From an uncultured virus (IMG/VR IMGVR_UViG_3300034012_002207) (taxonomy: Duplodnaviria > Heunggongvirae > Uroviricota > Caudoviricetes), in the IMG/VR virus record IMGVR_UViG_3300034012_002207: a stretch of DNA of 64,000 nucleotides. The stretch is one strand, 5' to 3'. Below the pieces are notes generated by a model. The model was given only the letters and a program-made list of their open reading frames with translations, made no database searches and had not been told where the DNA came from. Made by a program: the position numbers and the translations under genes. Below are positions 21,724 through 44,886 of this stretch, piece by piece (the stretch's first letter is position 1; each line of letters begins with the position of its first letter).

Positions 21724-22183
21724 GTTTGTCTCCCAGCAATTTCTGGATTAGCTGGCCATATCGTGTACCGTCACCGCCCTCGTTGATCTGCACATTAACC
21801 TGATTTTTAGGCCCACCTTGCCGTAATTTCTCCAGCTGAATCTCACGGTCTAGCAATTCCATGCTCATTTTGTGTGAGAGTGCAAGTAGTTCCGATATGT
21901 CTTTGGTGCTGCCCGTTTGCGACTCCTCCAGCTCCTGAAACTTTTGACTAATAAGTGCGTCCATGGCACGGCGCATACGAAACCGGTTGTTGAAGCCTAA
22001 GTCGAAGAATACCTGGTTAATGTAGGATTTCACATCTGGACGCTTTAGGATCTGGGCAACGTCGTGGGGTTCTAGCTGGAGGACAGTGGCTACCTCCTGG
22101 GTGTTTTGGTGTTCTAGGTAGAGATTAGCCACCTCCAATAATTCGGGGCTTATGTTGATGGTGTCGGTGGGTAGTTGGTTCAT
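21716..22183 (-). CDS. terS: terminase small subunit (T5-like)
   Basis: ISPE.LEVAN.YL HTH, GFNNRF; immediately upstream of terL. Confidence 0.8.
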   Translation of the reverse strand: MNQLPTDTINISPELLEVANLYLEHQNTQEVATVLQLEPHDVAQILKRPDVKSYINQVFFDLGFNNRFRMRRAMDALISQKFQELEESQTGSTKDISELLALSHKMSMELLDREIQLEKLRQGGPKNQVNVQINEGGDGTRYGQLIQKLLGDKLA

Positions 22184-22368
22184 GGTGATCCTGTAGTTTT
22201 TTAAAGTGTAACACGTTTAGCGGTTTAGGGTCAATGGGTAAATTTTCCTTGGTGTTACACGCGTGGGTGGGCGCTCAGATTTTTTGGTTTGTCAAGTCAA
22301 AAAACCGCCCCTGTTACGTTATAACATCACAAGGCCTGGCGCTGTTACAAATTGTTACAATTCAATGC

Positions 22369-22396
22369 TTGCACAAAATTTTCAACCCTGTATAAT
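22369..22396 (+). promoter_or_regulatory. pre-early promoter
   Basis: TTGCAC...TG TATAAT. Confidence 0.65.
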
Positions 22397-22430
22397 TAAA
22401 CACATCGAAGCACACAACCCTGGAAGCACA

Positions 22431-22583
22431 ATGCGGAACACCTATACAATCAGTTACTACTTGCAAGGCAAGCAAGGTTCTGTTACACTACAGGCTCAAA
22501 GCGAGCAAGATGCTTGCGGGCTTGTCAAGGCAATGCACAAGGGTTGCCGTATCTTCCACGTTATGAATTACAATCTTTATTGA
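22431..22583 (+). CDS. hypothetical protein
   Basis: first ATG after promoter. Confidence 0.5.
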   Translation: MRNTYTISYYLQGKQGSVTLQAQSEQDACGLVKAMHKGCRIFHVMNYNLY

Positions 22584-22590
22584 GGCTAAT

Positions 22591-22776
22591 ATGAAAAGCG
22601 CGTTAGGTTTTGGGCTTGTGTTTTTTGGGATTGTGTTGCTTGCCGGCGTAGCCGGCGGGCTTGACCAGATACCCGCGACTGGTTCTGTGGTATACTGGCT
22701 TACCAGCGTAATGCTGGCACTTGCTGGCTTTGCTGCTGGCTTGCTTGGAATTTCATTTATTGACAAAGGGGAATAA
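22591..22776 (+). CDS. small membrane protein
   Basis: GAGG RBS; two hydrophobic helices. Confidence 0.65.
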   Translation: MKSALGFGLVFFGIVLLAGVAGGLDQIPATGSVVYWLTSVMLALAGFAAGLLGISFIDKGE

Positions 22777-22779
22777 ATC

Positions 22780-23100
22780 ATGGCTGAAAAGACTGCGAAC
22801 TACACTTCGGAACAAACCCTTAAACTTGTGGCCGATTACAAGGCTGGGGTACAGGTTGAGGATATTGCCAAGGCAATGGGCAAATCGGTTCGGTCGATTG
22901 TTGCTAAACTGTCCCGCGAGGGTGTATACCAGAAAAAGGAATACACAACCAAAACGGGCGAGGCTCCCGTCAAAAAGGATGAGCACGCTGATATGATCGG
23001 CAAGGCACTGAACCTTTCAGAAGGGGATACCGATTCACTTGCCAAAGCAAACAAGCGCGCGCTTGCTGCGATTGCGGAGTTTATCCGCAGCAAGGCGTAG
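22780..23100 (+). CDS. T5 A2-like DNA-binding protein (copy 1)
   Basis: NYT.EQT..LV..Y..G..VE.IA..MGKSVRSIVAKLSREGVYQK; L.KANK.AL. Confidence 0.75.
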   Translation: MAEKTANYTSEQTLKLVADYKAGVQVEDIAKAMGKSVRSIVAKLSREGVYQKKEYTTKTGEAPVKKDEHADMIGKALNLSEGDTDSLAKANKRALAAIAEFIRSKA

Positions 23101-23330
23101 CACACTACGGCTCGGGGCGCAAGCCCCGAGGCCTGGGAGCGTGTTGTATTTTTACAACACGCTGGCGCCAAAATTATATCATATAATTTTGGCCCGTGTC
23201 AAGCATTTAATTGTAACAATTTGTAACAGCGTGGTTTTTTGGTCATTAGGGTTTTCCTTATATGCCCTGGGTTGCACAATCCCCAAAAACCTGTATAATT
23301 CTCTACATGGACAAAACACAAGGCAACAAA

Positions 23331-23561
23331 ATGATGAACGATCCTCAAATGATAGTTGACCATGCCATGCAATGTGGCGCGATTTGGGCTGGCATCGATA
23401 ACCTTGCACTTCACAAGGATCGCAAGGCTGTTGCGGTATCGTTCTCAAGCACGCACGATGCTCAGGAATTTGTGTACTATATACACGATTGGCTCGATGA
23501 GCATAACTTTCCTGATTTGCCTGTATCTTACGACGAAGAATTTGTTTTGGTCTGGCTCTGA
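23331..23561 (+). CDS. hypothetical protein
   Basis: ATG downstream of promoter at about 23272-23299. Confidence 0.5.
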   Translation: MMNDPQMIVDHAMQCGAIWAGIDNLALHKDRKAVAVSFSSTHDAQEFVYYIHDWLDEHNFPDLPVSYDEEFVLVWL

Positions 23562-23585
23562 AACTTAACCTTGAAAGGGTTTATC

Positions 23586-23915
23586 ATGAAAAAATGGGAT
23601 CAAGTTTTACGGCGTAATCTTCTGTCCGACCTTGAGGGAGAAGGTGGCTCGCTGGTTTATGATGTTGAGGACGGAATTACCGTCGCGGTTCGTCCCAGTG
23701 TGCCTGAATCATGGAGCCGGAATTCCGTGAACTGGGTTAAAATCGCAGTTGCCTATTGTGCAGACTTCGATGCCTATGACCCGATCAAGGGTGAGATTCT
23801 GGCAATGGAACGGGCTTTTCAGGGTGAAACGGTTTCGTTTCCCCGTATGCCCGGAGAGACTACGCTGGAAGTTGCTCTGAACTTTTTGCGATTTGTCAAG
23901 GGTGACGTAAACTAG
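23586..23915 (+). CDS. hypothetical protein
   Basis: AAGGG RBS, ATG 23586. Confidence 0.6.
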   Translation: MKKWDQVLRRNLLSDLEGEGGSLVYDVEDGITVAVRPSVPESWSRNSVNWVKIAVAYCADFDAYDPIKGEILAMERAFQGETVSFPRMPGETTLEVALNFLRFVKGDVN

Positions 23916-24089
23916 GGTAAACCCAGGTGTTGCGGAAACGCAACACCTGGGCGCCAATTTTATCATATAAAATTGGCGGGTGTCAAGGGTTTTTGCAAAA
24001 AAATTTTTCTATGGGCGTGAGCGTGTCGATAGAAAAATACAATGGCACCTGGCTTGCACTAGGCGCGATTTTCCTGTACTATCTTACTC

Positions 24090-24431
24090 ATGAACTCAAA
24101 CCCGCTCTTAAAACCTTGGCAAGATGCTTGCCGGATTTGGCCGGAACTGGAATTGCACAACCCGCCAACCTTCAAAATCTCGGAACGGCTAACCCGTACC
24201 GCTGGCTTGTGCATTGTGGAGACTGGCGAGATTACCCTCAGCGGCCCATACTTGCGCGAATACCGGCGTGAAATGATGGGGCAAATTCTCACCCATGAGA
24301 CTGCACATTATATCGACTACTGCCTGAACGGATGGCGAAAATATAAGCGGCATCACGGCAAACCATGGCAGGAAATCATGTATACTCTAGGGTATGAACC
24401 GAAACCCTTTCACACAATGGAATTAAAATAA
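24090..24431 (+). CDS. SprT-like zinc metalloprotease
   Basis: RLTRTAG, LTHETAH, HGKPW. Confidence 0.85.
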   Translation: MNSNPLLKPWQDACRIWPELELHNPPTFKISERLTRTAGLCIVETGEITLSGPYLREYRREMMGQILTHETAHYIDYCLNGWRKYKRHHGKPWQEIMYTLGYEPKPFHTMELK

Positions 24432-24904
24432 TGGCAATCAAGCGCGTTAGAATTTACGACATGGACGGAACCATTGTATGCTCGCTGCATCGTTACCGGA
24501 CCGTCATCGATGAGCGTGGCGAGCGTATCGACCTAGACTACTGGCGCGAGAATGAATACCGCGCGCTTGACGATTCACTCTTACCGCTGGTCGAAGAATA
24601 CTGGCAAGACCTTGACGATCCTGAAACGTATACCATAATTGCGACTGCGCGCGTACTAGGCGAACCGGATCGAGAATTTATCCGCGACACTCTAGGCGAA
24701 CCCGATTATATCGTTTCGCGTAAACAGGGCGATACGCAATCAGGTCGAACCCTCAAAATCGGTGGACTAGCAAAGTTTTTCAACCTTGTCAACTTCCAGA
24801 CTGACGATGTTGTTTTTTATGAGGATAATGTGGACTACCTTAAAGCAGTCTGCGACCGTTTCGGTATCCGTGGAGTTTACATTCCAAGCAAGCAGGGACA
24901 CTAA
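24431..24904 (+). CDS. HAD-family phosphatase
   Basis: IYDMDGT, IATAR, K, FYEDN motifs. Confidence 0.8.
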   Translation: MAIKRVRIYDMDGTIVCSLHRYRTVIDERGERIDLDYWRENEYRALDDSLLPLVEEYWQDLDDPETYTIIATARVLGEPDREFIRDTLGEPDYIVSRKQGDTQSGRTLKIGGLAKFFNLVNFQTDDVVFYEDNVDYLKAVCDRFGIRGVYIPSKQGH

Positions 24905-25315
24905 TGAAAACTGCCTTTTGCTTCCTACTGGTCGGTCATCTGGTAACAACCTCTCGATACAGGGCGCGCGAATACCTTGAGGAGGAACCCGTAATGTGGC
25001 AATGGGTTGAAGGACGATAGGGGCATACGCCCCTATTATTTTGCCCAGGCCATGTGATGTTATAACATAACATTGTTTCACATGAAACAATGTTATGTTA
25101 TAACATCACACCATGCTGGCGCCAATTTTACTATTAAAATTGGGCCGGTGTCAAGGACCAAATTGTAAATAATTGTAACAAAACCTGGCCCGTGTCGTAT
25201 TTTGTACACAAGGGTTTGCCCCACTAGAATTTTTTGCATGGGGCTGGATTCTGTGCTAGAATCTGGGTGTGGCAATTGCCGCGCGCGATTTCCGGCGCTT
25301 TCCGGTAAAGGGTAG

Positions 25316-26017
25316 ATGATGGCTCGCAAGCAGTTTTTTTGTATCGTTGACACTGAGACAACGATTAATGATACCGTGGCCGATTTTGGCGCGGTAATTG
25401 TTGATCGTGAGGGTAAGATTTTCACACAATGTGCTGTTCTGGTTCGCGGTGAATATGGGGATAAGACTCTATTCCACGACAAAAACAAATCAGATATTTG
25501 GGGTTTTGCGGGTTTGCGTAAACGTGAAGCACAATATGTCGCCATGCTAGATTCTGGCGCGCGTATGCTTGCATCAGTTGCGGCAATTAATCGCTGGCTT
25601 GCGCTTGCGGTAGGCAAATATAATCCTATTCTCACGGCATATAATCTAAACTTTGATGAGGGTAAATGTCGCAATACTGCGATTGATCTTGACCTATTCA
25701 CGGATCGGTTTTGCCTGTGGCAAGCGGCAATCGGTAATATTTGCGGAACTCGCAAATATCGTCAATTCTGTTTAGAGAATCACTTATTTAATCCGCCGAC
25801 TGATAAGGGTAATATGTCTTTTAAGACTACCGCTGAGGCAGTATGCGGATTTATTCAGGGTGAATTTAAGATTGAACCCCATACCGCTATCGAGGATGCG
25901 CGCGATTTTGAATTGCCCATCCTGACCAGTATTATCAAGCGCAAACAATGGCGCGATAATCTTAAAGCGCATACATGGTACGATTTTCAGGTCAAAAATC
26001 ACTTTAAGGCAATTTAA
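25316..26017 (+). CDS. DEDDh 3'-5' exonuclease
   Basis: IVDTETT, AYNLNFD, HTAIEDA. Confidence 0.85.
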   Translation: MMARKQFFCIVDTETTINDTVADFGAVIVDREGKIFTQCAVLVRGEYGDKTLFHDKNKSDIWGFAGLRKREAQYVAMLDSGARMLASVAAINRWLALAVGKYNPILTAYNLNFDEGKCRNTAIDLDLFTDRFCLWQAAIGNICGTRKYRQFCLENHLFNPPTDKGNMSFKTTAEAVCGFIQGEFKIEPHTAIEDARDFELPILTSIIKRKQWRDNLKAHTWYDFQVKNHFKAI

Positions 26018-26019
26018 TT

Positions 26020-26274
26020 ATGTCGGATGCAATCGGTATTATCGGATCGGTTGCATTTGCAACCTGTGCAATTCCACAGGTTGTCGAATGCTACCGTAAA
26101 CGATCCGCTGAGGGTTTGTCGTGGATGTTTTTAATCCTTTGGGCAATTGGCGAGATATTCACCATTATTTATATTTGGCCTAAACAAGACTGGATTTTGC
26201 TGGGCAATTATCTATTTAATTCGCTTTGCCTTGCGGTAATGATTTTTTTCAAAATTGAGGATACCAGAAAATGA
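26020..26274 (+). CDS. PQ-loop / SemiSWEET-like membrane protein
   Basis: AIPQV...RKRSAEGLS, three TM helices. Confidence 0.85.
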   Translation: MSDAIGIIGSVAFATCAIPQVVECYRKRSAEGLSWMFLILWAIGEIFTIIYIWPKQDWILLGNYLFNSLCLAVMIFFKIEDTRK

Positions 26275-26615
26275 AGTTTCACAAATCAGACATTGAACTA
26301 TTCCAGCGAATTGCGGAAACCGAAATTCAAATCCGCAAACCCGTAGTTTTACAGGTTTGCAAGACTATAAATCTCGGCGGTGTTTATTGTGTAGGATTAT
26401 GGGAAGATGAATTCGATTATCACCTAATCCAAGTTTCACGCGCTGAAATCTGGAATCCCATGGAATTATTTGCAACCATTGTGCATGAATATATTCACGC
26501 TTGGCAATCTGAAAATAATCTTCCAGTAAATCATTCTCCATCAGGTTATTTTGATCGGTGGCGAAAATATTTCCGGCGACATTATCAGGTTAATATTGCA
26601 GGATTCAATAAATAA
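26271..26615 (+). CDS. HEXXH zinc metallopeptidase-like protein
   Basis: TIVHEYIHAWQ...H. Confidence 0.7.
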   Translation: MKFHKSDIELFQRIAETEIQIRKPVVLQVCKTINLGGVYCVGLWEDEFDYHLIQVSRAEIWNPMELFATIVHEYIHAWQSENNLPVNHSPSGYFDRWRKYFRRHYQVNIAGFNK

Positions 26616-26890
26616 ATAAAACCCCGAAAGGGGTTTTACTTTGCCAGGCCTATGTGATGTTATAACATCACACCCGTGTGATGTTATAACATCACACCTT
26701 GCTGGCGCCAAATTTTATCATATAAAATTTGCCCGTGTCAAGGGTTTTCTACAAAATATTTTTCTATCGGGGTCGCCTAGTCGATTAAAAAATACAATCG
26801 CTTGCCCAGGGCGCAGGGCTAGATTTTCGTGTAGAATCTTTTCTGTGGCGGGTGCATGGGGCGCTTGCCAAAACTGTGAAGGGTAGCAAA

Positions 26891-27217
26891 ATGGCAGAAA
26901 AAGCCGTGAACTACACTCCCGAGCAAACCGCGCAGGTTGTCGCGGATTATCTCGCGGGTGTTACCGTGGAAAGCATTGCCGAAAATCTCGGCAAATCGGT
27001 TCGTTCGATTGTGGCAAAATTGTCGCGCGAGGGTGTTTACCAGAAAAAGGTTTATACCACGAAAACCGGCGAACCCGTTCAGAAAAAGGATATGACTGCG
27101 GATGCTATCGGTCGAATTCTGAACCTGAGCGAAGCTGATACCGACTCGCTTACCAAAGCGAACAAGCGCGCGCTGAAGGCGATTTTTGATGCGCTTGCCA
27201 ATTCCAAGCCTATCTAA
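26891..27217 (+). CDS. T5 A2-like DNA-binding protein (copy 2)
   Basis: close paralog of 22780-23100. Confidence 0.75.
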   Translation: MAEKAVNYTPEQTAQVVADYLAGVTVESIAENLGKSVRSIVAKLSREGVYQKKVYTTKTGEPVQKKDMTADAIGRILNLSEADTDSLTKANKRALKAIFDALANSKPI

Positions 27218-27233
27218 CTAGGCAAGGATTGTG

Positions 27234-27263
27234 CCAGCCCCGACTCCGGTCGGGGCTTTTTTT
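27234..27263 (+). terminator. intrinsic terminator
   Basis: agccccgac-tccg-gtcggggct followed by T-run. Confidence 0.85.
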
Positions 27264-27278
27264 CGGCCCGGCCCAGCC

Positions 27279-27690
27279 TGGCACAGTTCTTGCTAAGGCA
27301 AAAACTGTGCCAGGCGCTGGCGCCGATTTTATCATATAAAATCGGCCCGTGTCAAGCGCAGAATTGTAACAATTTGTAACCGTGGCTTTTTTACCACAAA
27401 GCAAAATTCGTGCCAGGCCTAGATGAGAATGATTCTCATTCGCACCAAGCAAAATTCGTGCCACTAGCAAGATTCGTGCCAGCCTAGCGAAGTGAGCACT
27501 TACTAACCGGACCAAGTTAGTGAGCACTTACTAACCGGACCAAGTTAGTGAGCACTTACTAACCTCCAGGGCAGGTTGCGCCAGTGCAAAACCTTGGCAA
27601 GTGCAAAATCTTGCGCGTGCGCCAGTGCAAAACCTTGGCAAGTGCAAAAACTTGGTCTTCCTGCGCCAGTGCTAAAGTGGCAAATCGAAA
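27279..27690. repeat. repeat/palindrome cluster, injection-stop-signal-like
   Basis: 5 TGGCAC-N5-TTGC units, 3 x 28-bp tandem repeat, 2-3 x ~31-bp repeat with 41-bp period. Confidence 0.85.
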
Positions 27691-27887
27691 AATCTAGTCT
27701 TGCCCGCGACCGCTAAGCCATGTATAATATTTATATTGAGTCAGCGATTAAAGGAACAACATGAACAAATTTGTGCCACCGGATACCGTAGGCGATTTAC
27801 CTGACTGGTTGAAGCCTAAAAAATCTTGACTTGATTCCCAAGCCTAATCCCTGTATAATATTTATATTGATTGATTGGAGAACCCAA

Positions 27888-28196
27888 ATGACTGACAAAG
27901 TAATGAACTATACCCCTGAACAAGTTCAGGAACTGGTCCAGAAGTATCAGCAAGGTGTAAGTGTTGAGCAACTGGCTGAGCAGGTTGGTAAAAGTGTGCG
28001 TAGTGTGGTTGCTAAACTTTCGCGCGAGGGTGTGTACGTAGCGAAGACCCGGACTACACAGGCGGCCCGGGTTACCAAAGCTGAGCTGGTCGAGCGCATT
28101 GCTAAGGTGTGTGATCGGAATAGTGAACAGTTTGAATCGCTGGAAAAAGCAAATCAGGATGTTTTGACCCGCCTGGTCGAAGTGCTCAAAGCCTGA
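27888..28196 (+). CDS. T5 A2-like DNA-binding protein (copy 3)
   Basis: NYTPEQ...GKSVRSVVAKLSREGVY; GGAG RBS. Confidence 0.75.
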   Translation: MTDKVMNYTPEQVQELVQKYQQGVSVEQLAEQVGKSVRSVVAKLSREGVYVAKTRTTQAARVTKAELVERIAKVCDRNSEQFESLEKANQDVLTRLVEVLKA

Positions 28197-28258
28197 TCAA
28201 CCGGGGGCTGCAAAAATTTACTCTTGCAGCCCCCACTCAAACAGTGTATAATATTATT

Positions 28259-28636
28259 ATAGTTTGGGAAGGGCGATAACGCGCACAAACAGAGTCCACT
28301 TAGCCAACTACAAGTGTCGATAACCTAAGTACGAGACTCAAGTTTGATTCCCAAACTATCCCTTCAGAAAGGCAGCAGTTAGTTACTGCTAGCAGATGGT
28401 AATATTGGTCTGTAGTTTTATGATGTCTGGCTCTGATCGGTCCCTAATGTCTCAGTACCTGGAAGCAGTAAATTCTGGGGAACGCACTCACGGAAATCAA
28501 CCAGACCCTAAACCGCGGCAATCTCAACCATCGTTGCTGCTTTTCCCCCTATTCCTCTGATGAGCTCACCAAGAGCGAAACCCAAACCCGAAAACTGGTG
28601 CCCCATGCCCAGCAGACTACGGTTTAGGGTCAGGAA
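28259..28636 (+). ncRNA. putative structured ncRNA ending in hammerhead ribozyme
   Basis: promoter at about 28224-28252, long closing stems, no credible ORF, terminator at 28639-28670. Confidence 0.65.
28552..28636 (+). ncRNA. type I hammerhead ribozyme
   Basis: ttcct-CTGATGA-gctc/gagc-GAAA-ccc.aaacc/ggttt.ggg-TC-aggaa; GUC cleavage after 28631. Confidence 0.88.
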
Positions 28637-28638
28637 CC

Positions 28639-28670
28639 GAGCCCACCAGTGCAAACTGGTGGGCTTTTTT
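28639..28670 (+). terminator. intrinsic terminator
   Basis: agcccaccagt-gcaa-actggtgggct followed by T-run. Confidence 0.9.
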
Positions 28671-28836
28671 ATTTGCGGTAGGGCGCCAATATTATACAGT
28701 GCTAAAGCTATATGTGTCAAGAGCAGATTTGTTGGGGTTCTGACCCTAAGCCGCGGCAAGTCGGTACAAGTTGTGCTCACAAAACAAAAACCCCCAAGGC
28801 TTCCACAGCTTTGGGGGTTTTTTCACTTTATACGGT

Positions 28837-29148
28837 TTAGGGTCGGTTATTCCTACTTAATTCCCGTTCTATGACCTCAAGCACACCTTTATTGACCTTT
28901 TCCAGACTTTCGAGCAGTTCAAGGTTCATGTTGAGCAGTAGGGCGATTCGTTCGATGTATTCTGACTTCTTAACCGGGACCTCACCGCGTTTGTTTAGGT
29001 ACTGTTTTTTCTGGTACACCTCGAGGGAGCTGAGCTTGGCAATTATGCTACGAGTTGGCACCTGGAGCTCTTGGGCAAGCTCCTCTACTGGGACACCTTC
29101 TCGGTATCTTTGCACTAGACGGTCAGTGATTTCTTTAGTATATTTCAT
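28837..29148 (-). CDS. T5 A2-like DNA-binding protein (copy 4, convergent)
   Basis: MKYT.E....LV..Y..G..VEELA..L...RSIIAKLS...VYQKK; LESLEKVNK. Confidence 0.7.
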   Translation of the reverse strand: MKYTKEITDRLVQRYREGVPVEELAQELQVPTRSIIAKLSSLEVYQKKQYLNKRGEVPVKKSEYIERIALLLNMNLELLESLEKVNKGVLEVIERELSRNNRP

Positions 29149-29152
29149 GTTG

Positions 29153-29935
29153 TTAGTCGTCCCATGGCATATCTGCGACTTTAACGTGTTTTGGACCCTC
29201 AGTCGCCACAACCGAAAAAATCTCGTCGGGTAGGAGCGGCGGTGGCATACGATCCCACTGCCAGGGGTCTAGGATTAAGTATTGTGTTCGTAGCTGTGGA
29301 TGGCAAACCCAGATTTGTGTCAACATTGTAATCGCCAGACGAGGAATCTCACGCCATGGAGTGGGTAGTCCAGTAAGCTGCCAAGTTGTAAGCGCACTTT
29401 TATACTGACCTTGTTTTTGTCCAGTTTTGTACAGCAACCCCTGCTGGCGAATTTCGATGAGCTCTTGTGACCCTAAATCGCGGAAGTGTGGGTTATGGCT
29501 AGCCCACAGCAAACATTCGTAAAGTTCTTTACTAATCACACGATCCAAGCCTTCCAGCGGCCAGCTCTGGTATGGAACTCCCCGATCTCGACGTTGTGCT
29601 AGTAGGATAGTAGGAGCTAGACTACTCCAGTTGACAGAGCTGGGATGGCTTTGACGTTTGATCAGGTGGCTGCGATTTACTCGATTAACTAGCCTCCACA
29701 AGCCCAGCTCCCAATCGCTGCAAATGTTGATACGGAGTGTTTTAGGAATGTCTACCCTACCTTGAGGGTCTAGGATAAGATTCCAGCGATTGTAGTGTGC
29801 TAGAATCTGAGGCCACAACCACTCCTCTTTGGTCTGGAGTTGTTGTTCGGCCACCCAAACCTCCAGCAGTTTAGGGTCGACCTGGTTGGCAATTTCATGG
29901 AGTGGAATTGCTTCCAGTTTATTTAGTTTTTGCAT
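29153..29935 (-). CDS. hypothetical protein (Trp-rich)
   Basis: 260-aa ORF, operonic with the A2-like gene. Confidence 0.75.
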   Translation of the reverse strand: MQKLNKLEAIPLHEIANQVDPKLLEVWVAEQQLQTKEEWLWPQILAHYNRWNLILDPQGRVDIPKTLRINICSDWELGLWRLVNRVNRSHLIKRQSHPSSVNWSSLAPTILLAQRRDRGVPYQSWPLEGLDRVISKELYECLLWASHNPHFRDLGSQELIEIRQQGLLYKTGQKQGQYKSALTTWQLTGLPTPWREIPRLAITMLTQIWVCHPQLRTQYLILDPWQWDRMPPPLLPDEIFSVVATEGPKHVKVADMPWDD

Positions 29936-30412
29936 CGAGTTTTAGCGTAAAAATTGGGGTATAAAAATTTATTATAATTTGTATAAAAGAAAACAATTCT
30001 CCAACTTATAAAGTTGGTAGTGATTAACACCTCTAGTTCTTACAACAACTGCACTAGGCTTGCTGGTACTCAGGGGCCCTCGCGAAACGTCGCCTGGTCC
30101 TGCACAGCTTGGTGCAGTTGTTTTAAACTAGGGTTTAATCACCAATTGTTTAATCTCTTTAGATATAACAATATTATATCATACTTTTTTGTGTTTTGCA
30201 AGCGTATTTTTAGTTGAGGTGGTAGTTATCAGTCGTGTTCCACCCTGACATAGCAATCTGTGTATAGTGGAGTGCTGGTAAATACGTAGACTTCTTTGCC
30301 GGGGAATAGCTGGTTAAAATAAAGCCTAACCTGTTCGGTGTTGACAGGTTCGTGGTCCAGGTTCTTGACCCACCACGTATTGTGGTTAAGGACTTCGATA
30401 AGTTGTGGGTGG

Positions 30413-36842: not shown

Positions 36843-36917
36843 CTGGCCGTCGTTCAACGGATAGGACAGCATTCTTCTAAAGTGCGAATGGGGGTTCGAT
36901 TCCCTCCGGCCGGGCCA
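36843..36917 (+). tRNA. tRNA-Arg(TCT)
   Basis: cloverleaf, GGTTCGATTCC, CCA end. Confidence 0.9.
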
Positions 36918-36988
36918 AAGATTTCTATCTTGACCCTAAATCTCAAAAATTATATAATATTTTATAAATAATTCACACAGAGAACATC

Positions 36989-37846
36989 ATGCGAGTGCAT
37001 ATCGCTAGCGACCTACACATTAACTTTGATACCGGACACGACACACTAGTCCTGCCGGGTGGTGATCTCCTGCTCCTATGCGGTGACCTCTTAGAGGCAG
37101 GACATATCCGACTAGCACACAATGTGGGTCGTGGTATGAGTACTCTAGATGCGTACCACAAGTTTTGTGATACCCAACTGCCTAAGTATGCACAGGTCCT
37201 ATACGTGTTTGGCAATCACGAGTACTACCAGCATGATTTCTCAACTGCGCGTAAGCGTATTGAACCCCTTCTACCCCCTAACGTAACTATTCTACAAAAC
37301 AGTTATGTTAAGATTGAAGATTACCTGATCTGGGGCGCTACCATGTGGACGGATAATGATCGTGGCAATCCCACAGTTGCCCATGCTATTGGTGGACTCA
37401 TGAGTGATTACCAAGTAATCAAACACGAGCCTGCTAGGTTTGTAGAGGGAGCTGGTGGTGGCTACTGGACTAACAAGTTCACCCCTAGTGATAGTGAGCA
37501 AGAGCACCGGTATAGCCGTGCTCGACTAGAAGAATTTCTACTAGCCTACCCCAACCACAAAACTATTGTGATGACTCACCATGCTCCTAGCTACGAGTCA
37601 ATTGCTAGTGAGTACCGTGAGCACGTACATGGTTATATCAACCATGCATACTACAGTGATCTTACTAACATCATCCTAGACAATCCGCAGGTTAAGCTAT
37701 GGGCACATGGTCATGTGCATTCGATGAATGACTACCAGATCGGTAGTTGCCGTGTGGTAAGTAATCCTCGTGGATATGCTGGTTACGAGCGACAGGCTGA
37801 GCGTTTTGAACAGGCTAGCAGTAAAGTCTGGATTGACTTGGAGTAG
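36989..37846 (+). CDS. calcineurin-like metallophosphoesterase
   Basis: SDLH, CGD, GNHE, THHAP, HGHVH, NPRGY. Confidence 0.9.
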   Translation: MRVHIASDLHINFDTGHDTLVLPGGDLLLLCGDLLEAGHIRLAHNVGRGMSTLDAYHKFCDTQLPKYAQVLYVFGNHEYYQHDFSTARKRIEPLLPPNVTILQNSYVKIEDYLIWGATMWTDNDRGNPTVAHAIGGLMSDYQVIKHEPARFVEGAGGGYWTNKFTPSDSEQEHRYSRARLEEFLLAYPNHKTIVMTHHAPSYESIASEYREHVHGYINHAYYSDLTNIILDNPQVKLWAHGHVHSMNDYQIGSCRVVSNPRGYAGYERQAERFEQASSKVWIDLE

Positions 37847-38001
37847 GCTATGAATATCCGATTACACAACTTTATACATTGTGGAAGTTTTACCGTAGTA
37901 GAGCGACTAATTATTGTTGTGGGGTGTGTAGTTGGGTTATTTTTAATCTTGACTTAGTGGATACGGTGTGCTATAATATCTTTTCATTTGGAGAAGAAAA
38001 C

Positions 38002-38190
38002 ATGGCAGGCTATACCCGTGAATTTTTGTTGGAATGTTTTGCGAGCAGATATGAGCCACTGGGACTTGAAACCACCGAAAAGCAGTACAAACTGGCTAGC
38101 GACCTCTACGACCAAGTCGGCAAAGACAAATTCAGAGTCTATGCTAGCTTGGACGCCGAAGCAGTCCGTAACTATAAAAACACACGATAA
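38002..38190 (+). CDS. hypothetical protein
   Basis: GGAG RBS after promoter. Confidence 0.6.
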   Translation: MAGYTREFLLECFASRYEPLGLETTEKQYKLASDLYDQVGKDKFRVYASLDAEAVRNYKNTR

Positions 38191-39191
38191 TGTTCAAACA
38201 ACACCCCAGAGTTGGTTTTGCTTGCAAGATTCAAGAAAGCCATGACAAAGCAGCTCCAGGCCTAAACACCGGCACTACCACAATTACTTGGCTAAATAAT
38301 CAGACCCGAGATGTAGCTGTAGCCAAGCTATGGGGTATTCTGGACAAGAATACTAACGCCATAATCAGGCAACTAGAGTGGGTAGCTAAAAAGCCAGCAC
38401 AAGAGCGTATGTTCCGCCTAAGCAGCGACTTGCTTCCAGCATATACCCACGACGACTGGTCGTGGTGGTACTGGGAGCCAGACGTAGTTCGCGAGCTAGA
38501 GGCTAGATTTGATATGATTGGCAACCTAGCTAGACAACACGATATTCGACTTAGTTTTCATCCCGGTCAGTTTTGTGTACTAGCTAGTGAAAACCCAAAT
38601 GTTGTTGAAAACTCTATTCAAGAGTTTGAGTATCATGTAGACCTTATTCGCTACATGGGTTATGGTCGTGAATTTCAAGACTTTAAGTGCAACGTACATA
38701 TTGGTGGCAAACAAGGTCCAGAAGGTATCAAACAAGCACTTAAGCGTCTTAGTCGTGAAGCTCGCAATGTGCTTACCATTGAGAACGCTGAGTTTAGCTG
38801 GGGTATTAATGCTAGTCTAGAGCTAGTAGATCACTGTGCACTAGTCCTAGACATTCACCATCACTGGATTATGAGTGGGGAATACATTGAGCCAACCGAT
38901 CCTCGTGTACAGCGGTTATGGGAATCTTGGCGAGGTGTTAGGCCAGTAATCCACTACAGCTTGAGTCGTGAAGATGTTGTAGTCGAACATGATCGCAATG
39001 CCCGACCCAACCTGCAGGAATTGTTAACACAAGGATTCACGCGAGCTAAATTGCGTGCACATAGTGACTACTACTGGAACCTAGCTTGTAACGAGTGGGC
39101 CGGTAGTTTTCTAGAGTATAGCGACATTATGCTAGAGTCCAAAGAGAAAAACCTTGCTCAGGCTGCTTTTGTCAAGCAAATGAAAATTTAG
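38190..39191 (+). CDS. uvsE: UV damage endonuclease
   Basis: GFACK, FRLSSD, RLSFHPGQF, NVHIG, LTIEN, VLDIHHH, HYS, AHSDY, MLESK. Confidence 0.92.
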   Translation: MFKQHPRVGFACKIQESHDKAAPGLNTGTTTITWLNNQTRDVAVAKLWGILDKNTNAIIRQLEWVAKKPAQERMFRLSSDLLPAYTHDDWSWWYWEPDVVRELEARFDMIGNLARQHDIRLSFHPGQFCVLASENPNVVENSIQEFEYHVDLIRYMGYGREFQDFKCNVHIGGKQGPEGIKQALKRLSREARNVLTIENAEFSWGINASLELVDHCALVLDIHHHWIMSGEYIEPTDPRVQRLWESWRGVRPVIHYSLSREDVVVEHDRNARPNLQELLTQGFTRAKLRAHSDYYWNLACNEWAGSFLEYSDIMLESKEKNLAQAAFVKQMKI

Positions 39192-39406
39192 ACTTGCACT
39201 AGACCAGTAAACGTGATATAATATGTGTATAGTGTGAATTAAGAAAGAAATAGCAATACAACTATTACCGTTTAATTTCTTGTCTTGATTCACGCTAACT
39301 AATACTGTATAATATTATATATGGGGCGGCACAAACCGCAAAAGCTCAACAAGCGTCAGCTTGGGGTGCATGAGCCACAACGATTAAAACCTTAGATCGT
39401 TACCAT

Positions 39407-39489
39407 GCCCAGGTGGTGGAATTGGTAGACACGCTGGTCTTAGAAGCCAGTGCGCGAGCGTGACGGTTCGAGTCCGTCCCAGGGCACCA
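39407..39489 (+). tRNA. tRNA-Leu(TAG)
   Basis: class II cloverleaf, CCA. Confidence 0.93.
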
Positions 39490-39672
39490 TAGTTAAGTAT
39501 TTTGTTCGTCCTAGGTGAAATAAACAGGACATTGCAGCCCAGAGAAATAAGGGTACCCGGCCGGTATATCCCTAAAGCGGGCTGAAGTTAATCGTAGCCG
39601 ATCCTTAGCGGGATCATATGGCAGGAAGATTAACTCATGCGCGAGCAGGCAGTAAGCAAAATACTTTACTAT

Positions 39673-39759
39673 GGATGCGTAGCCAAATGGTTGACGGCAG
39701 CGGGCTGTAAACTCGTGACACTAGAAACGCTGGTGGTTCGAATCCATCCGCATCCACCA
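39673..39759 (+). tRNA. tRNA-Tyr(GTA)
   Basis: class II cloverleaf, CCA. Confidence 0.9.
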
Positions 39760-40268
39760 TATTGAAGCACATTAAAATCCCTAAAAAGATCAGGGCTGGT
39801 ACACCACATACCTCTCAAGGAAAGTATGTATAGACCACAGTGTGTTTCAATATGGTTGTTGACTAGCCCGATAAGGCACTCTAAAGCCTGAACTGGGAAA
39901 ACTTATTTCTAGTCAACATCCGTAATTGCGCTGCTCACGCTGAACCTATAAACTCTAGGCTGGTGACTAGGCTGGGGTCGTACCCCGTAAAGATATTCGA
40001 CTGTACAACGTGAACAGTGAAGTCTAGAGCAAGCAGGAATGAGCACCTGCATATAATAGTTCCCGCCACGCTTACATAGTCGTATCCCTAGACTATACCG
40101 CGCAACAGGGCGATAAAAGTTACTAGTGATGGTGGACTACGTAACTGGACATTCTAGACCTGCGGGCCGTCGCCCAATAGTAACAAGACACTATGAAGCC
40201 ACTTTAGGGAGTGGGGCCATAGTTCAACTCATACTCGTGATTTGAACTATGGTTTTTTGGAGATAATA

Positions 40269-40586
40269 ATGAGTCGTACTCTAAAAGATAAACCGCACAC
40301 TGTAGCGTATCCAGAAGATCACTACTTATACGATGCTATTCGTGTAGATACTAGTAGCTTTGGTTTTCGTTACATACAAGTTGCGGGCAAGAAAACTAAA
40401 AAGCGTAGAAACTACTGTCATTTTCGCTGGTATAGCACAACACCTAGCTGGTGGACTCGTATTACTATGAATCGTCCACAGCGTCGTCGTGGCCGTGTAT
40501 GGGAGCACGCAGTGCTCAAGACCACAGACCTAGAGCTAGTAGATCCGCCCGCAGTAGGACGTAAACCACACGTATATTATTATTAA
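40269..40586 (+). CDS. hypothetical basic protein
   Basis: GGAG RBS; MSRTLKDKP...TPSWW..MNRPQR. Confidence 0.7.
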   Translation: MSRTLKDKPHTVAYPEDHYLYDAIRVDTSSFGFRYIQVAGKKTKKRRNYCHFRWYSTTPSWWTRITMNRPQRRRGRVWEHAVLKTTDLELVDPPAVGRKPHVYYY

Positions 40587-40661
40587 GGGCTGCTAGTGAT
40601 AATGGGAGCACGGTGCCTTTGCACGGCATAGGTCGGAGTTCGATCCTCCGGCGGTCCACCA
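40587..40661 (+). tRNA. tRNA-Ala(TGC)
   Basis: cloverleaf, G3-U70, CCA. Confidence 0.9.
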
Positions 40662-40719
40662 TAAAAGATTTGGGAACCAACCCAAACAGCCCCCGTAAGG
40701 GGAATTTAAACACACGGAG

Positions 40720-40923
40720 ATGTGTATGATGGCATATAACGGATTAGACATTATTTCAGTCGATGTTCCGCTAATGCTTAGATTGATGGAATTTGCGCGC
40801 GAAGATGCTAAACACGATAAAGATTTGCACTTTGTAGCAGAACACCTAATCAGGCTAATGCAAACAAATACTCTCCTCACTATGAAACACTATGACACAA
40901 TAGTTGATAGAGGGGGTTTTTAA
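40720..40923 (+). CDS. hypothetical protein (paralog of next)
   Basis: DVPLMLRLMEFAREDA...LTM..Y..IV. Confidence 0.7.
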   Translation: MCMMAYNGLDIISVDVPLMLRLMEFAREDAKHDKDLHFVAEHLIRLMQTNTLLTMKHYDTIVDRGGF

Positions 40924-41126
40924 TGGGCGATAAATATTACAAGTTCGTAGAGATTGAGGTTAGCCCTAAACTCATGAAAAAGCTCTTAGAACATATCAAA
41001 GACCCTAAGGTAACGCAAGATCATATAAACTATATGATGGAAAACTTGATGTGGTTAAGTAAACACGACGAGTGCCTTACCCTAGATGAGTACGAAGTAA
41101 TCACAGAGAAACCCATAGTTAGTTAA
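40923..41126 (+). CDS. hypothetical protein
   Basis: same pattern: PKLM..LLE...LTL..Y..I. Confidence 0.65.
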   Translation: MGDKYYKFVEIEVSPKLMKKLLEHIKDPKVTQDHINYMMENLMWLSKHDECLTLDEYEVITEKPIVS

Positions 41127-41201
41127 TTATGGTCGGCAGCTAGGCTTGCCGGCCTAGTAGCCGTTTAACTCCACAAACAATAATAAAAAACGGAGAACAA
41201 A

Positions 41202-41963
41202 ATGGCAGAATCAATCACACCTGCAGGCATGATGATGAGTGGCGGCGGCGACGGTCTTTTCGGAGGCGGCGGTCTTATTGGCGGTCTTATCCTAGGCTCG
41301 CTCCTACGCAACAATGGTAATCTCTTTGGAGGAGATGGCGCAGCTGCTGGAGCAACTCTACGTAGTCCGCCTGAGCAAGTTCAAGCCAACATGAGCCTAA
41401 TGCAGAGCATTGGTCAAGTAGACAAGGCAGTAGCTGTTAGTACAGCAGCCATGGAAGCGTCACAAGCCAATCAAACCATTGCTTTTACAAACCAGCTCAA
41501 TGCACAAACAGGCTCATTGGCAACTCGTGTTGACGGTACCAAAGAAGCAGTTAATGCGACCGCTATGCTGCTTTCACAGCAACTTAATGGCGTACAACAA
41601 CAAGTAATGGAAAACCGTTACCAGTTGGCACAAGACATTAACAATGATGGTGACAAGACTCGTGCCTTAATCACTAGTCAATACGAAGCCACTCTAAACC
41701 GTCAACTCAGCGATGCTAATGCAAACATTATTGCACTGCAATCTCGTTTTGATACCGCAGAGCGTACACGTGGTGTAGAGGTCAATACAACAACCACTGT
41801 TAACCAGATGCAACAGCAAGCTCAACAGCAACAACAATACGGTCAGCTTTACAATGCTCTCTGGGCCCTTGCTCAAAACATTCAGAATACTAACTCAGCA
41901 ATCAATGTTGGTAGTGGAACACAAACCGCTAATCCAGCAAACACAAATACAAATATTAGATAA
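41202..41963 (+). CDS. Gly-rich/hydrophobic N-terminus, coiled-coil, Q/N-rich protein
   Basis: GGAG RBS; GGLIGGLILGSLL; DGDKTRALI; poly-Q. Confidence 0.85.
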   Translation: MAESITPAGMMMSGGGDGLFGGGGLIGGLILGSLLRNNGNLFGGDGAAAGATLRSPPEQVQANMSLMQSIGQVDKAVAVSTAAMEASQANQTIAFTNQLNAQTGSLATRVDGTKEAVNATAMLLSQQLNGVQQQVMENRYQLAQDINNDGDKTRALITSQYEATLNRQLSDANANIIALQSRFDTAERTRGVEVNTTTTVNQMQQQAQQQQQYGQLYNALWALAQNIQNTNSAINVGSGTQTANPANTNTNIR

Positions 41964-42028
41964 TCTCTAATTAACGGTTGGCCCCCCACGTTCAAAAGAC
42001 CTGGGGGCGCTTTTTATAGGAGATTATT

Positions 42029-42520
42029 GTGCAAAGACAAAAACAACACTTATTGCCACCATTTATGTGGCAAAAGCAAGGGTTTGCTCTTGTTCCTGCT
42101 CCGCCCCTGCCGCCTCCAATCATGGAAGATAATGACTTATTTATCAACTATGGCATAGGCACGCCCGGACCACCCGGTCCACCAGGACCACCTGGTCCTC
42201 AGGGTCCGGAAGGACCACAAGGACCACCAGGCTCACTAGCAGATGTGCCTGTGCAACTCATAGATACGCCAACCTATAGTGCTACCACAGATGAGTACTT
42301 TTTAGGCGTAATTTATAATGGTGCAGTAACGGTTACACTTCCTAGTGGAACCCTTGGCAAAGTGTTTATTATCAAAGATAGTGCGGGGGATGCTAATACA
42401 AATCCAATTACTGTGACTACTACAGGCAGTAGTATTGATGGCGAATTAACTTATGTTTTAGACACAGACTGGGGCAGTATTGGTTTGGTCTATAATGGCA
42501 TAGAATGGAATGTAGTATGA
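42029..42520 (+). CDS. collagen-like protein with C-terminal beta domain
   Basis: (GPP/GPQ) repeats, then TVTLP..GKVFIIKD.G.A.TNPIT..IDG...YNG.EW. Confidence 0.85.
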   Translation: MQRQKQHLLPPFMWQKQGFALVPAPPLPPPIMEDNDLFINYGIGTPGPPGPPGPPGPQGPEGPQGPPGSLADVPVQLIDTPTYSATTDEYFLGVIYNGAVTVTLPSGTLGKVFIIKDSAGDANTNPITVTTTGSSIDGELTYVLDTDWGSIGLVYNGIEWNVV

Positions 42521-43077
42521 GCTATAATCAAGCACTAGCAAGTACCACAGACTATGGCGTAATCAAAGTAGGAAGTGGATTAAGTGTAACAAATGGTATT
42601 GTTACTGCAACTAGCAGCAGTTTTGGCGAATATGGATTTGTTAATAGTAGTACCCCACAAACTAATCCAGTTGCTAATCAGGTTAATGTTATTACATTTG
42701 ATACATTAGGCCCAGCTAATGGAGTAAGCATAGGCGGCGGCGGTAACAATATCACTGTTGCAAATGCAGGTATATATACTCAAATATTTACACTTATAAC
42801 CACAAAAACCAGCGGTGGCACAGCCACACTAAGTATATGGTTACGAAAAAACGGTGTAGATATAACAGGCTCAGCACAAGAGTTACAACTAACAAACGTA
42901 TTATCTATAGTATTCTTAAGCGGTAATTATACACTGAGTTTAGCAGCAGGAGATAACATACAAACCTGTTGGAGTAGTCCAGATATAACTACTGGTTTTA
43001 GCCCACTAGCTGCTCAAGTAAATCCTGTTAGACCAACAGGTTATGCAGTCAAGGTTACACTAACAAGGATAGGATAA
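42517..43077 (+). CDS. BclA C-terminal / C1q-like domain protein
   Basis: ITVANAGIY, IWLRKNG.DI.GS, LSLAAGDNI. Confidence 0.7.
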   Translation: MSYNQALASTTDYGVIKVGSGLSVTNGIVTATSSSFGEYGFVNSSTPQTNPVANQVNVITFDTLGPANGVSIGGGGNNITVANAGIYTQIFTLITTKTSGGTATLSIWLRKNGVDITGSAQELQLTNVLSIVFLSGNYTLSLAAGDNIQTCWSSPDITTGFSPLAAQVNPVRPTGYAVKVTLTRIG

Positions 43078-43078
43078 T

Positions 43079-43384
43079 ATGAGTATAACTTATGATACTA
43101 GAACTATTACAACAACACCCGCCACAATTGATAAAGACGATGAGGTTATATTTAGTAATGTAACAACTGCGTCATCACTGGTACTACCAAACCTATCTGG
43201 AAGTAATACTGGTAAAACTTATTATATCAAAGATTTTTCAGGTAATTCAAAAATAAATCCTATAACTATTACTGCACCCAGTGGAAAAACCATTGATGGT
43301 GCAAGTTTTGCAATATTAAATACTCCATATAGCCGCGTACTACTTACTTACGACGGCACTAACTGGAAGAGTATAGCAGGGTAA
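43079..43384 (+). CDS. small beta-domain protein (paralog of 42029 C-terminus)
   Basis: LVLP...GKTYYIKD.SG...NPITI...TIDG...YDGTNW. Confidence 0.75.
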   Translation: MSITYDTRTITTTPATIDKDDEVIFSNVTTASSLVLPNLSGSNTGKTYYIKDFSGNSKINPITITAPSGKTIDGASFAILNTPYSRVLLTYDGTNWKSIAG

Positions 43385-43422
43385 TTTTCAGTGCCAACAA
43401 TAACAATAACAGGAGAAAATCC

Positions 43423-43827
43423 ATGGCATATAATTCACCATTAACCTCAACCACCAACTACGGTGTAGTAAAGGTTGGATCAAATATTACAGTTACTAAC
43501 GGCGTTATTTCTGTTGTAGGAAATGAAACTGTTAATACACAGCTAGTCAACAACGCAGCAAGTCCCTATACCCTAGACAGTGCAGGTACTACTCCAAATT
43601 ACTACTTAGGCGTAGTAGGCACTGGAGCTGCGATTGCTATTAACCTAACTGCCGGTGTAGACGGTAGAACAGTAGTTATCAAAAGCGAAGCTGGACAAAC
43701 CAGCGATATTACCGTTACGCCCAATGGTGCAGAAACCATTGAAAATGCAGCAAGCTACACAATATTAGCCGCCACAGATGGAGCAATTACACTAGTGTTC
43801 CGCGGAACAAATTGGAACGTAATATAA
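43423..43827 (+). CDS. small beta-domain protein (paralog)
   Basis: STTNYGVVKVG leader; GRTVVIK...TIE...FRGTNWNV. Confidence 0.75.
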   Translation: MAYNSPLTSTTNYGVVKVGSNITVTNGVISVVGNETVNTQLVNNAASPYTLDSAGTTPNYYLGVVGTGAAIAINLTAGVDGRTVVIKSEAGQTSDITVTPNGAETIENAASYTILAATDGAITLVFRGTNWNVI

Positions 43828-43933
43828 GGAGGACGGTATCGATAACACTACTATAGATGAGGCGGCTGCACTATAGTAGATTACATGCGGGTGTGACTGC
43901 TCTCAAATTACAGTTAAATAAAAAGTAGTAAAA

Positions 43934-44149
43934 ATGTCAGCTTTAAAAATTCATAAATACTGGTGCCCAAAACAAGAACAAGATTACAAAACCATAATGC
44001 AAGCTGTAGATGACTTGGGTGCAGCTAGTCTTGCTCTAGCAACTAACGGTGCTCAAGCCTATACACAGTTCCTACAAGCCCGCGATCAATTTCAAGAATG
44101 TTTTACAGAGATAACTAAACACTATCGTTATGTAGAACAAGACAGTTAA
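43934..44149 (+). CDS. hypothetical protein
   Basis: 71-aa helical ORF at end of cassette. Confidence 0.6.
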   Translation: MSALKIHKYWCPKQEQDYKTIMQAVDDLGAASLALATNGAQAYTQFLQARDQFQECFTEITKHYRYVEQDS

Positions 44150-44244
44150 AATTTTAATATTGAACTATGCAATCTAGTTTGCTATAATATTACTTTGGCG
44201 TTGATTAAAACTGCAAAGTAATTTATATTTAATTTAGGTATATC

Positions 44245-44361
44245 ATGAAACTAAAACCTCGTAATCCGTATGTGGCACTAGCCCGCAAACGTAGGGCGGG
44301 TTCACATACCAAAACCCATAAACAAGTTCGTGGTCAACTAAATCGCAAACTAGATGCATAA
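44245..44361 (+). CDS. small basic protein
   Basis: AGGT RBS; MKLKPRNPYVALARKRRAGSHTK. Confidence 0.6.
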   Translation: MKLKPRNPYVALARKRRAGSHTKTHKQVRGQLNRKLDA

Positions 44362-44367
44362 GTTAAT

Positions 44368-44468
44368 GGAAGGGTTGCTAATATTGGCCTTAGGGCGAGC
44401 CTTATAAACTCGTAAGCACTGTCCAGATAAGGCAGTTAATGTGGGTTCGATTCCCACCCCTTCTACCA
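44368..44468 (+). tRNA. atypical tRNA, anticodon probably TAT, long variable arm
   Basis: 7-bp acceptor, T-arm GTGGG-TTCGATT-CCCAC, CCA; C31/A39 mismatch. Confidence 0.7.
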
Positions 44469-44474
44469 TAACCT

Positions 44475-44567: not shown

Positions 44568-44578
44568 CGGAGAATACT

Positions 44579-44884: not shown

Positions 44885-44886
44885 CC

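Follow-up and report, generated by a model that had tools for sequence, protein, structure and literature searches.

We examined a 64,000-nucleotide stretch of DNA from an uncultured caudoviricete (IMG/VR virus record IMGVR_UViG_3300034012_002207), referred to here as the window, in which a short minus-strand element recurs six times in and just beyond an island of plus-strand genes. Each copy of the element carries TTGACA, 18 bp and TATAAT or TAAAAT. The six sites had been listed in an initial annotation (23164, 23950, 25118, 26704, 27319 and 28682), and all of them matched the pattern of our search, GGCGCC-N15-40-GTGTCAAG as read on the plus strand. The annotation had taken them for leftward promoters (the last in a degenerate copy), and a reading as complete minus-strand promoters of the sigma-70 type is supported. 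The copies, and the gene promoters located behind two of them, are arranged as follows.

23164..23203, minus strand: copy 1; -35 TTGACA at 23197-23202, -10 TATAAT at 23173-23178, TGn present; palindrome arms at 23167-23179 and 23181-23193
23272..23299, plus strand: gene promoter behind copy 1, TTGCAC-16-TATAAT; the weaker of the two, its -35 lying 70 bp from that of copy 1, back to back
23950..23987, minus strand: copy 2; -35 at 23981-23986, -10 TAAAAT at 23957-23962, TGn present; arms at 23952-23963 and 23967-23978
25118..25155, minus strand: copy 3; -35 at 25149-25154, -10 TAAAAT at 25125-25130, no TGn; arms at 25122-25130 and 25135-25143
25233..25262, plus strand: gene promoter behind copy 3, TTTGCA-18-TAGAAT with TG, from the promoter scan
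26704..26742, minus strand: copy 4; -35 at 26736-26741, -10 TAAAAT at 26712-26717, TGn present; arms at 26709-26718 and 26722-26731
27319..27356, minus strand: copy 5; -35 at 27350-27355, -10 TAAAAT at 27326-27331, TGn present; arms at 27322-27332 and 27336-27346
28682..28721, minus strand: copy 6; -35 at 28715-28720, -10 TATAAT at 28691-28696; non-palindromic, with a GCAC box in the spacer

Promoter anatomy and occurrence of the element

The -35 hexamer is TTGACA and the spacer is 18 bp in all six copies, while TG precedes the -10 in four of them, as the annotation's "mostly TGn" had stated. Among 34 promoter-like sites scored between 21500 and 30000, the six copies occupied the first six ranks (12/12 in two, 11/12 in four). 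On the minus strand the core layout is CTTGACAC, 17 nt and TAWAAT, with GGCGC following within 0-4 nt. Thirteen sites in this genome fit TTGAC-N18-20-TAWAAT, and GGCGC follows only the six that belong to the motif copies; the GGCGC is thus specific to the promoter class of the motif. Sequence and comparison together make it well supported that the elements are complete, near-consensus promoters for the host sigma-70-type RNA polymerase. Every module also has its own, weaker plus-strand promoter, 50-110 bp from the motif and back to back with it. That at 23272..23299 was read by eye, the promoter scan having skipped it (its first hexamer matches at 3/6 positions). Copy 6 sits just past a plus-strand terminator (28639-28666). 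A Chi-like site was entertained and rejected: GCTGGCGC precedes four of the six window copies, but its GCTG is not kept in relatives, and GGCGC is not enriched genome-wide on the minus strand (21 occurrences, against 48 on the other strand).

The number of copies is far from the chance expectation. The window contains six matches to the pattern, each on the same strand, compared to a mean of 0.00 in 100 dinucleotide-preserving shuffles. The full 97,811-bp virus record gave no matches beyond these six, all on one strand, and the backwards-read control gave none. Both GGCGCC and GTGTCAAG are confined, across the whole genome, to the six motif copies. Close cultured relatives were sought by megablast of 22000-30000 against a phage collection, which returned no matches, and a search of the literature did not find a comparable element. 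A scan of genome_contigs with the motif yielded 78 loci, mostly lone matches in unrelated metagenome-assembled genomes, and identified no host; a few short multi-copy contigs in that scan resemble misbinned phage.

Related viral contigs in IMG/VR were scanned for the promoter together with GGCGC, with the -35, the 18-bp spacer, the -10 and GGCGC 0-4 nt after it all required. The scan yielded at least 211 loci, at least 230 copies and at least 164 distinct cores; the fractions given below for cores, hairpins and flanks are among the matches listed. TGn was present in 115 of 164 cores. A looser set comprised 31 copies on 9 contigs, in which TTGACA was found in 29/31, the 18-bp spacer and a TATAAT or TAAAAT -10 in 31/31, TGn in 22/31, and GGCGC 0-4 nt past the -10 in 30/31. 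The invariance of GGCGC is partly built in, as every search pattern required it on the minus strand. When the requirement was lifted, GGCGC still followed all but one of the TTGACAC-18-TAWAAT sites in the islands. A minority of cores has no palindrome and carries instead a GCAC box in the spacer, with all promoter elements kept; copy 6 of the window is of this kind. It is these non-palindromic copies that argue most strongly for the promoter as the invariant core of the element.

Five related contigs contain one to six copies each, the true copies lying within a few kb and on one strand per contig. Four of the contigs (G001-G004) share the layout of the window, a plus-strand island between the small terminase gene terS and minus-strand genes, with every copy leftward; the fifth (G005) has a single copy at the contig end. 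The copies face against the island genes, each with a different palindrome and with no open reading frame (ORF) behind it, as the annotation had described. Its proposal of a modular unit also stands. The flanks assort freely, in that 307 pairs of copies were alike on the gene-promoter side and only 40 of these were alike on the other side too, and contigs of relatives from two wastewater runs join non-adjacent modules at the motif (for example, 23202 to 27014, 25073 to 26703 and 27444 to 23165). One contig of a relative links 22331 to 25090. At the left edge of the island (22270-22334) we noted a decayed copy of the motif (GGCGC-N17-GTCAAG, with no -10), along with the remnant of a TGTGATGTTATAACATCACA palindrome.

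Palindromes and the predicted leftward transcript

The arms of copies 1-5 measure 13, 12, 9, 10 and 11 nt, each with 100% complementarity. As single-stranded DNA these five copies fold at -8.6 to -11.3 kcal/mol (z of -3.6 to -7.0), and the copy at 28682 has no fold (0 kcal/mol). In roughly three of every four cores, an AT-rich, perfect palindrome with a G/C clamp takes in the spacer, the -10 and the bases that follow. A perfect stem of at least 8 pairs is present in 126 of 164 distinct cores, which have 58 distinct left arms. The mean stem was 10.2 pairs, compared to 6.6 pairs in 5000 chimeras of left and right halves taken from different copies. The mirror of the -10 agrees with its type: 28 of 35 TAAAAT cores mirror ATTTTA, 76 of 129 TATAAT cores mirror ATTATA, and none of the 164 mirrors the other type. 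One pair of the 39-nt class (68 cores) reads A-T in 50 cores and T-A in 13, and is unpaired in the other 5. Covariation counted in a fixed register was blurred, because the palindrome centre shifts between copies, and the chimera test was used in its place. The centre lies 1-3.5 nt upstream of the -10 and moves by up to 2.5 nt, and the stems range from 8 to 14 pairs. Since both stem length and centre shift between copies, selection for pairing fits better than the half-sites of one protein. The earlier claim that the arms covary, and that symmetry is selected, is supported by compensatory changes and by the loss of pairing in the chimeras. The palindrome includes the -10, and the compensating changes in its arms point to selection for DNA (or nucleic-acid) structure within a promoter, of which we know no natural example. 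The core palindromes are not intrinsic terminators. No T-run follows them on either strand, and the terminator scan showed none there save for 5-pair artefacts at 27309-27321 and 27345-27357.

On the transcribed side, each of copies 1-5 is followed by further palindromic sequence, in the form of a second palindrome that abuts the copy in the case of copies 1, 2, 3 and 5.

23138..23163: second palindrome of copy 1, abutting its transcribed side; arms at 23138-23148 and 23153-23163
23922..23951: second palindrome of copy 2; arms at 23922-23934 and 23939-23951, overlapping the first two bases of GGCGCC
25053..25110: second palindrome of copy 3; perfect 28-nt arms
26614..26696: neighbours of copy 4; two tandem 20-bp palindromes (26653-26696) and a two-way terminator (26614-26641)
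27277..27314: second palindrome of copy 5; one imperfect pair, C-A on the plus strand and G-T on the minus strand

A perfect stem with at least 7 pairs starts no more than 20 nt after GGCGC in 136 of 201 copies, compared to 3 of 201 in shuffled sequence, and it begins 0-5 nt after GGCGC in 108 of the 136. A transcript from such a copy would therefore carry a hairpin at its 5' end. The annotation had gone further, to defined hairpin RNAs of 60-110 nt with a shared 5' end, and one can envisage that this product is what matters: a short, stable hairpin RNA acting as a decoy, as an antisense regulator of the upstream mRNA, or as a primer. The copy at 26704 would suit this best. It is the only one in the window with a convincing leftward terminator within about 100 nt, and its predicted RNA would stop at the two-way terminator after about 95 nt; some relatives likewise show a hairpin with a T-rich tail. 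But a tail of this sort (at least 6 T in the next 10 nt of the leftward strand) follows just 26 of the 136 hairpins, and the hairpin sequences are mutually unrelated, with 139 flank clusters among 201 copies. Searches of Rfam reached the gathering threshold for no family; below it they returned microRNA-like matches, which fell on the long palindromes, and a single terminator-like match. G-U pairs are normally tolerated in RNA stems. The 118 distinct hairpins contain 13 mismatches in total, and among these a G-T pair occurs once on the leftward strand and five times on the gene strand. Folding was slightly better on the gene strand (113 versus 86, p=0.004), and the 31-copy set gave no strand difference (p=0.69). 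The adjoining hairpins are near-perfect palindromes at the level of DNA, with no bias to the leftward strand.

In view of the few T-rich tails, the single terminator among six copies, the G-T distribution and the folding, we find no support for defined leftward hairpin RNAs as a family. The defined length that had been predicted is not supported, and selection on a leftward RNA could not be substantiated. Nor is the shared 5' end supported: GGCGC sits at a variable 0-4 nt after the -10, so the predicted start shifts relative to it. We regard a functional hairpin RNA as unlikely.

The gene island and its T5-type setting

The large terminase of this lake-water virus is 47-50% identical to those of T5-like phages, and the island holds genes of the T5 pre-early type.

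22263..28196, plus strand: gene island of T5 pre-early type by Pfam and PHROG matches; holds copies 1-5, with copy 6 just beyond
22780-23100, 26891-27217 and 27888-28196, plus strand: three paralogous helix-turn-helix (HTH) proteins of the A2 family, matching phrog_1725
24431-24904, plus strand: dmp homologue, 37% identical to T5 Dmp over 86 residues (E 6e-16)

The A2-family paralogues are 70% and 45% identical. T5 A2 itself falls in phrog_1725 (E 4e-52), and with three island proteins matching this family the T5/A2 context suggested by the annotation is sound. The island also codes for an SprT-like protein, a 233-residue protein and a PQ-loop protein, and it is flanked by minus-strand genes on both sides, the small terminase gene on the left and further genes on the right. 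The pre-early first-step-transfer region of T5, like that of Vibrio phage PG07, is at the same location, beside the terminase genes. Synteny and gene content thus identify the island as the counterpart of the T5 pre-early region. Its genes are probably the first to be expressed in infection, and we infer that the island is a terminal repeat. A search of this genome for a homologue of T5 A1 gave none at E<=0.01, a result that is weak as evidence of absence. The phage RNA polymerase profile PF00940 had no match in this genome, but control genomes likewise had none, so that the result carries no weight.

Several other features of the island and its edges are of note. A fourth, weaker A2-like member is encoded just outside the island (28837-29211, minus strand; phrog_1725 at E 8.6e-4, phrog_323 at E 4e-5). 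At 24075-24092, the ATG of the SprT-like gene (24090) comes only about 10 nt after a -10-like TACTAT; the mRNA may be leaderless, or the true start may be located further downstream. In the segment 28225-28670, roughly 400 nt that lack a convincing ORF extend from a promoter-like TTGCAG-17-TATAAT to the strong plus-strand terminator at 28639-28666. This segment may be a non-coding RNA; contigs of an RNA run (X24) cover 28003-28451, and in G003 and G004 too it is located before the last motif copy. Inverted GACCCTAA repeats flank a terminator at 28796-28821. The stretch at 27380-27701 is untranslated and rich in repeats, with three GCAAAATTCGTGCCA-like units and a 28-bp unit repeated 2.6 times (27491-27564). 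Within it, 27577-27701 consists of 41-bp tandem units with GCGCC and GTGCAAAA boxes, which by eye are like the GTGCAAATCCGACA repeats that end the T5 injection-stop region.

Elsewhere, a second class of promoter with an extended -35, TTGACCCTAAA, precedes terS (22224-22240) and other genes genome-wide. ARAGORN located 18 tRNA genes at 36843-50895, together with a permuted tmRNA gene whose tag, ANDETFALAA, we take to resemble beta-proteobacterial tags. Several palindromic hexamers are depleted in the whole genome (CGATCG, 0 compared to 7.0 expected; GATATC, 6 compared to 22.2), which may reflect avoidance of restriction.

Interpretation of the element

We put at roughly 0.5 the probability that the selected function of the element is to be bound and transcribed, with this activity tuned by palindromes at the DNA level and with the core serving as homology for cassette exchange. 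On this proposal, the element would stand at the left edge of every gene cassette in a pre-early island of T5 type, and its backward promoter would fire away from its own cassette, towards the end of the previous one. Host polymerase would bind and start there to make an antisense, non-coding transcript, whose sequence is not conserved and which in most cases would lack a defined end; selection would act on binding and transcribing rather than on the RNA. By this act, polymerase could keep the promoter occupied, run into read-through coming from the previous cassette, or be coupled topologically to the divergent gene promoter. Both palindromes, at the level of the DNA, would modulate this act, whether by forming cruciforms or by serving as sites for proteins. 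The core, invariant over about 38 bp, may double as homology for the exchange of cassettes, as in the promoter-early stem-loop (PeSL) cassettes of T4-type phages. The sequences establish the anatomy of the element, its conservation and orientation, the covariation of the arms and the mosaic flanks; that backward transcription takes place, and what role it has, we infer.

Several points weigh against this proposal. The consensus used in scoring was of the sigma-70 type, which was assumed to be that of the host. A plain promoter leaves the conserved GGCGC and the strict 18-bp spacer unexplained. An UP element of the kind found at rRNA promoters was considered and rejected: AT content is hardly higher immediately upstream of the -35 (0.64) than further out (0.61), so there is no clear UP element. 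The contigs of X24, the one clear RNA run, lie at 22819-23020, 27834-27982, 28003-28294 and 28284-28451; they cover only 22819-23020 and 27834-28451 and none is at a motif, and being strandless they are silent on leftward transcripts. Two further runs labelled RNA-Seq (X22 and X23) were rated as probably DNA. Ordinary terminators already lie ahead of the element at four of the six boundaries in the window, and stopping read-through would be a redundant task for it there. Topological coupling and cruciform extrusion are both hypothetical.

The palindromes could instead be operators. Either the HTH proteins of the A2 family encoded in the island or a host factor would bind the spacer palindrome or the one just after the start and switch the promoters, with the GCAC box playing the same part in non-palindromic copies. 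Three paralogous proteins of the right family are encoded within the island itself, a centre 1-3.5 nt upstream of the -10 is a classic operator position, the non-palindromic subtype keeps its conserved box in the same place, and GCAC-like boxes recur in tandem at 27577-27701 in a manner that resembles the T5 injection-stop repeats. The arms, on the other hand, do not behave as a binding site would. One protein would keep its half-sites, not complementarity, and the operator of a single protein is disfavoured on this ground: no half-site is conserved at a fixed distance from the centre, as there are 58 left arms with compensating changes, the clamp lies at varying distances from the centre, with stems of 8-14 pairs, and the centre itself moves by as much as 2.5 nt. 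A2 is presumably a dimeric DNA binder. Operators of this kind appear doubtful to us.

The location of the palindrome also allows for a bolder possibility, namely that these are natural promoters gated by cruciform extrusion, in which the backward promoter would sense the torsional state of newly injected DNA. The AT-rich palindrome with its G/C clamp extends across the spacer, the -10 and the discriminator, and the 18-bp spacer and GGCGC might assist in sensing. The injected DNA would be linear and held at one end. The backward promoter would fire first and feed negative supercoils to the weaker divergent gene promoter, whereupon extrusion of the palindrome would silence the backward promoter. 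Horwitz and Loeb (1988) reportedly switched off an engineered promoter by supercoil-driven extrusion of a cruciform. The likeness is that a palindrome lies across the core promoter, where extrusion would hide the -10; the difference is that theirs was engineered, whereas extrusion here is hypothetical. We know of no natural family of cruciform-switched promoters. Were this scenario true, which we consider quite improbable, early gene expression would be timed without a dedicated regulator.

It is very unlikely that the copies are selfish or neutral repeats, spread by recombination of cassettes, for which the promoter-like core is a patch of homology with no function of its own. The flanks are mosaic on both sides of the core, modules of relatives are joined at the core, and two copies in G001 lie 123 bp apart with no gene between them, all of which such repeats would explain. 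But in each of the genomes examined the copies keep strictly to one orientation and one place, the promoter positions do not change while the arms vary freely, and the arm changes are compensatory; these three features indicate selection.

A T5-type site for strand-specific nicking or DNA processing, with the GGCGC as the functional part and the likeness to a promoter as secondary, would account for other observations. The consensus in the T5 record is 5'-N-Pu^GCGC-N-3' on the minus strand, and Pu-GCGC is invariant on the minus strand here, even where the plus strand lacks it. The minus strand carries terL in both phages, GGCGCC occurs at just these six places in 97.8 kb, and a palindrome likewise adjoins the nick of T5 at 9748. 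The wider flanks of the T5 sites (from four nicks; GTAA about 27 nt upstream and GCGC-A/G-GG downstream) were not found here, however, and T5 has one major nick per terminal repeat rather than a cluster of five or six. A match over four bases is weak, and the invariant -35, spacer and -10 and the palindrome would be left without explanation, so that we hold this reading to be highly improbable.

The least credible idea is that polymerase bound at the copies serves as a ratchet or motor for DNA entry: strong sites do occur every 0.6-1.6 kb in a region that by T5 synteny would enter first, in a genome with no A1 match at the above threshold, but if the left end leads as in T5 (this, like the island as terminal repeat, being assumed) the promoters face DNA that is already inside and cannot pull, and a ratchet would need no fixed orientation.

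Among known systems, the elements appear most like PeSL cassettes, but with the promoter reversed. PeSL cassettes are intergenic cassettes of T4-type phages in which the stem-loop may sit between or over the -35 and -10 (PMC2839356; PMC4122927). Shared by both are a repeated intergenic consensus sigma-70 promoter with a stem-loop, clustering among small accessory genes in a plastic region, and service as exchange points between unrelated flanks. There are differences as well. A PeSL promoter drives the next ORF, whereas the copies in the window and in G001-G004 point away from the following gene, which has a separate promoter. The PeSL stem is a G/C-rich, effective terminator, whereas the stem here is AT-rich with covarying arms, and separate ordinary terminators precede four of the six elements in the window. 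Only here is the -10 followed by a conserved GGCGC and by a second palindrome, and the phage is T5-like, not T4-like.

The first-step-transfer region of T5 (NC_005859; Davison 2020, preprint 10.1101/866236) is similar in being beside the terminase genes in collapsed assemblies and in having strong leftward host promoters. Both regions contain a dmp homologue and A2-family genes, and the far end of both is an untranslated stretch, rich in repeats and with boxes of the GCAC type. The genes dmp, A1 and A2 face leftward, however, in T5 and Vibrio phage PG07, where the leftward promoters serve them, whereas the genes here are rightward and the leftward promoters serve none; A1, as noted, had no counterpart in our search. 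The T5 pre-early promoters were rejected as homologues, since the strongest promoter-like sites of the T5 repeat have spacers of 16-17 bp. The T5 interruption sites share the minus-strand Pu-GCGC, and in one case an abutting palindrome, and differ in their extended flanks, number and clustering.

Bidirectional promoters with a symmetric -10 have a shared or overlapping -10 and starts 18, 10 or 23 bp apart (PMC12825309, citing Warman et al. 2021). The palindrome similarly sets a TATAAT or TAAAAT hexamer on both strands. The hexamers here are separate, 0-5 bp apart, with predicted starts about 26-30 bp apart, and the plus strand has neither a -35 (for example, ACGCTG or ACCTGG at the right distance) nor TGn.

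The element is short and self-contained, and it is therefore amenable to study in vitro with E. coli polymerase, even though the phage is uncultured. To our knowledge, promoter/stem-loop cassettes are the one described mechanism for the shuffling of accessory genes in large virulent phages. The elements described here would extend such shuffling from T4-like phages to a T5-like freshwater lineage, and with a geometry beyond the known model, in that the strongest promoters of the region point at no gene. As by T5 synteny the DNA that carries them would be the first to enter the cell, the elements would bear on how the first minutes of infection are staged.

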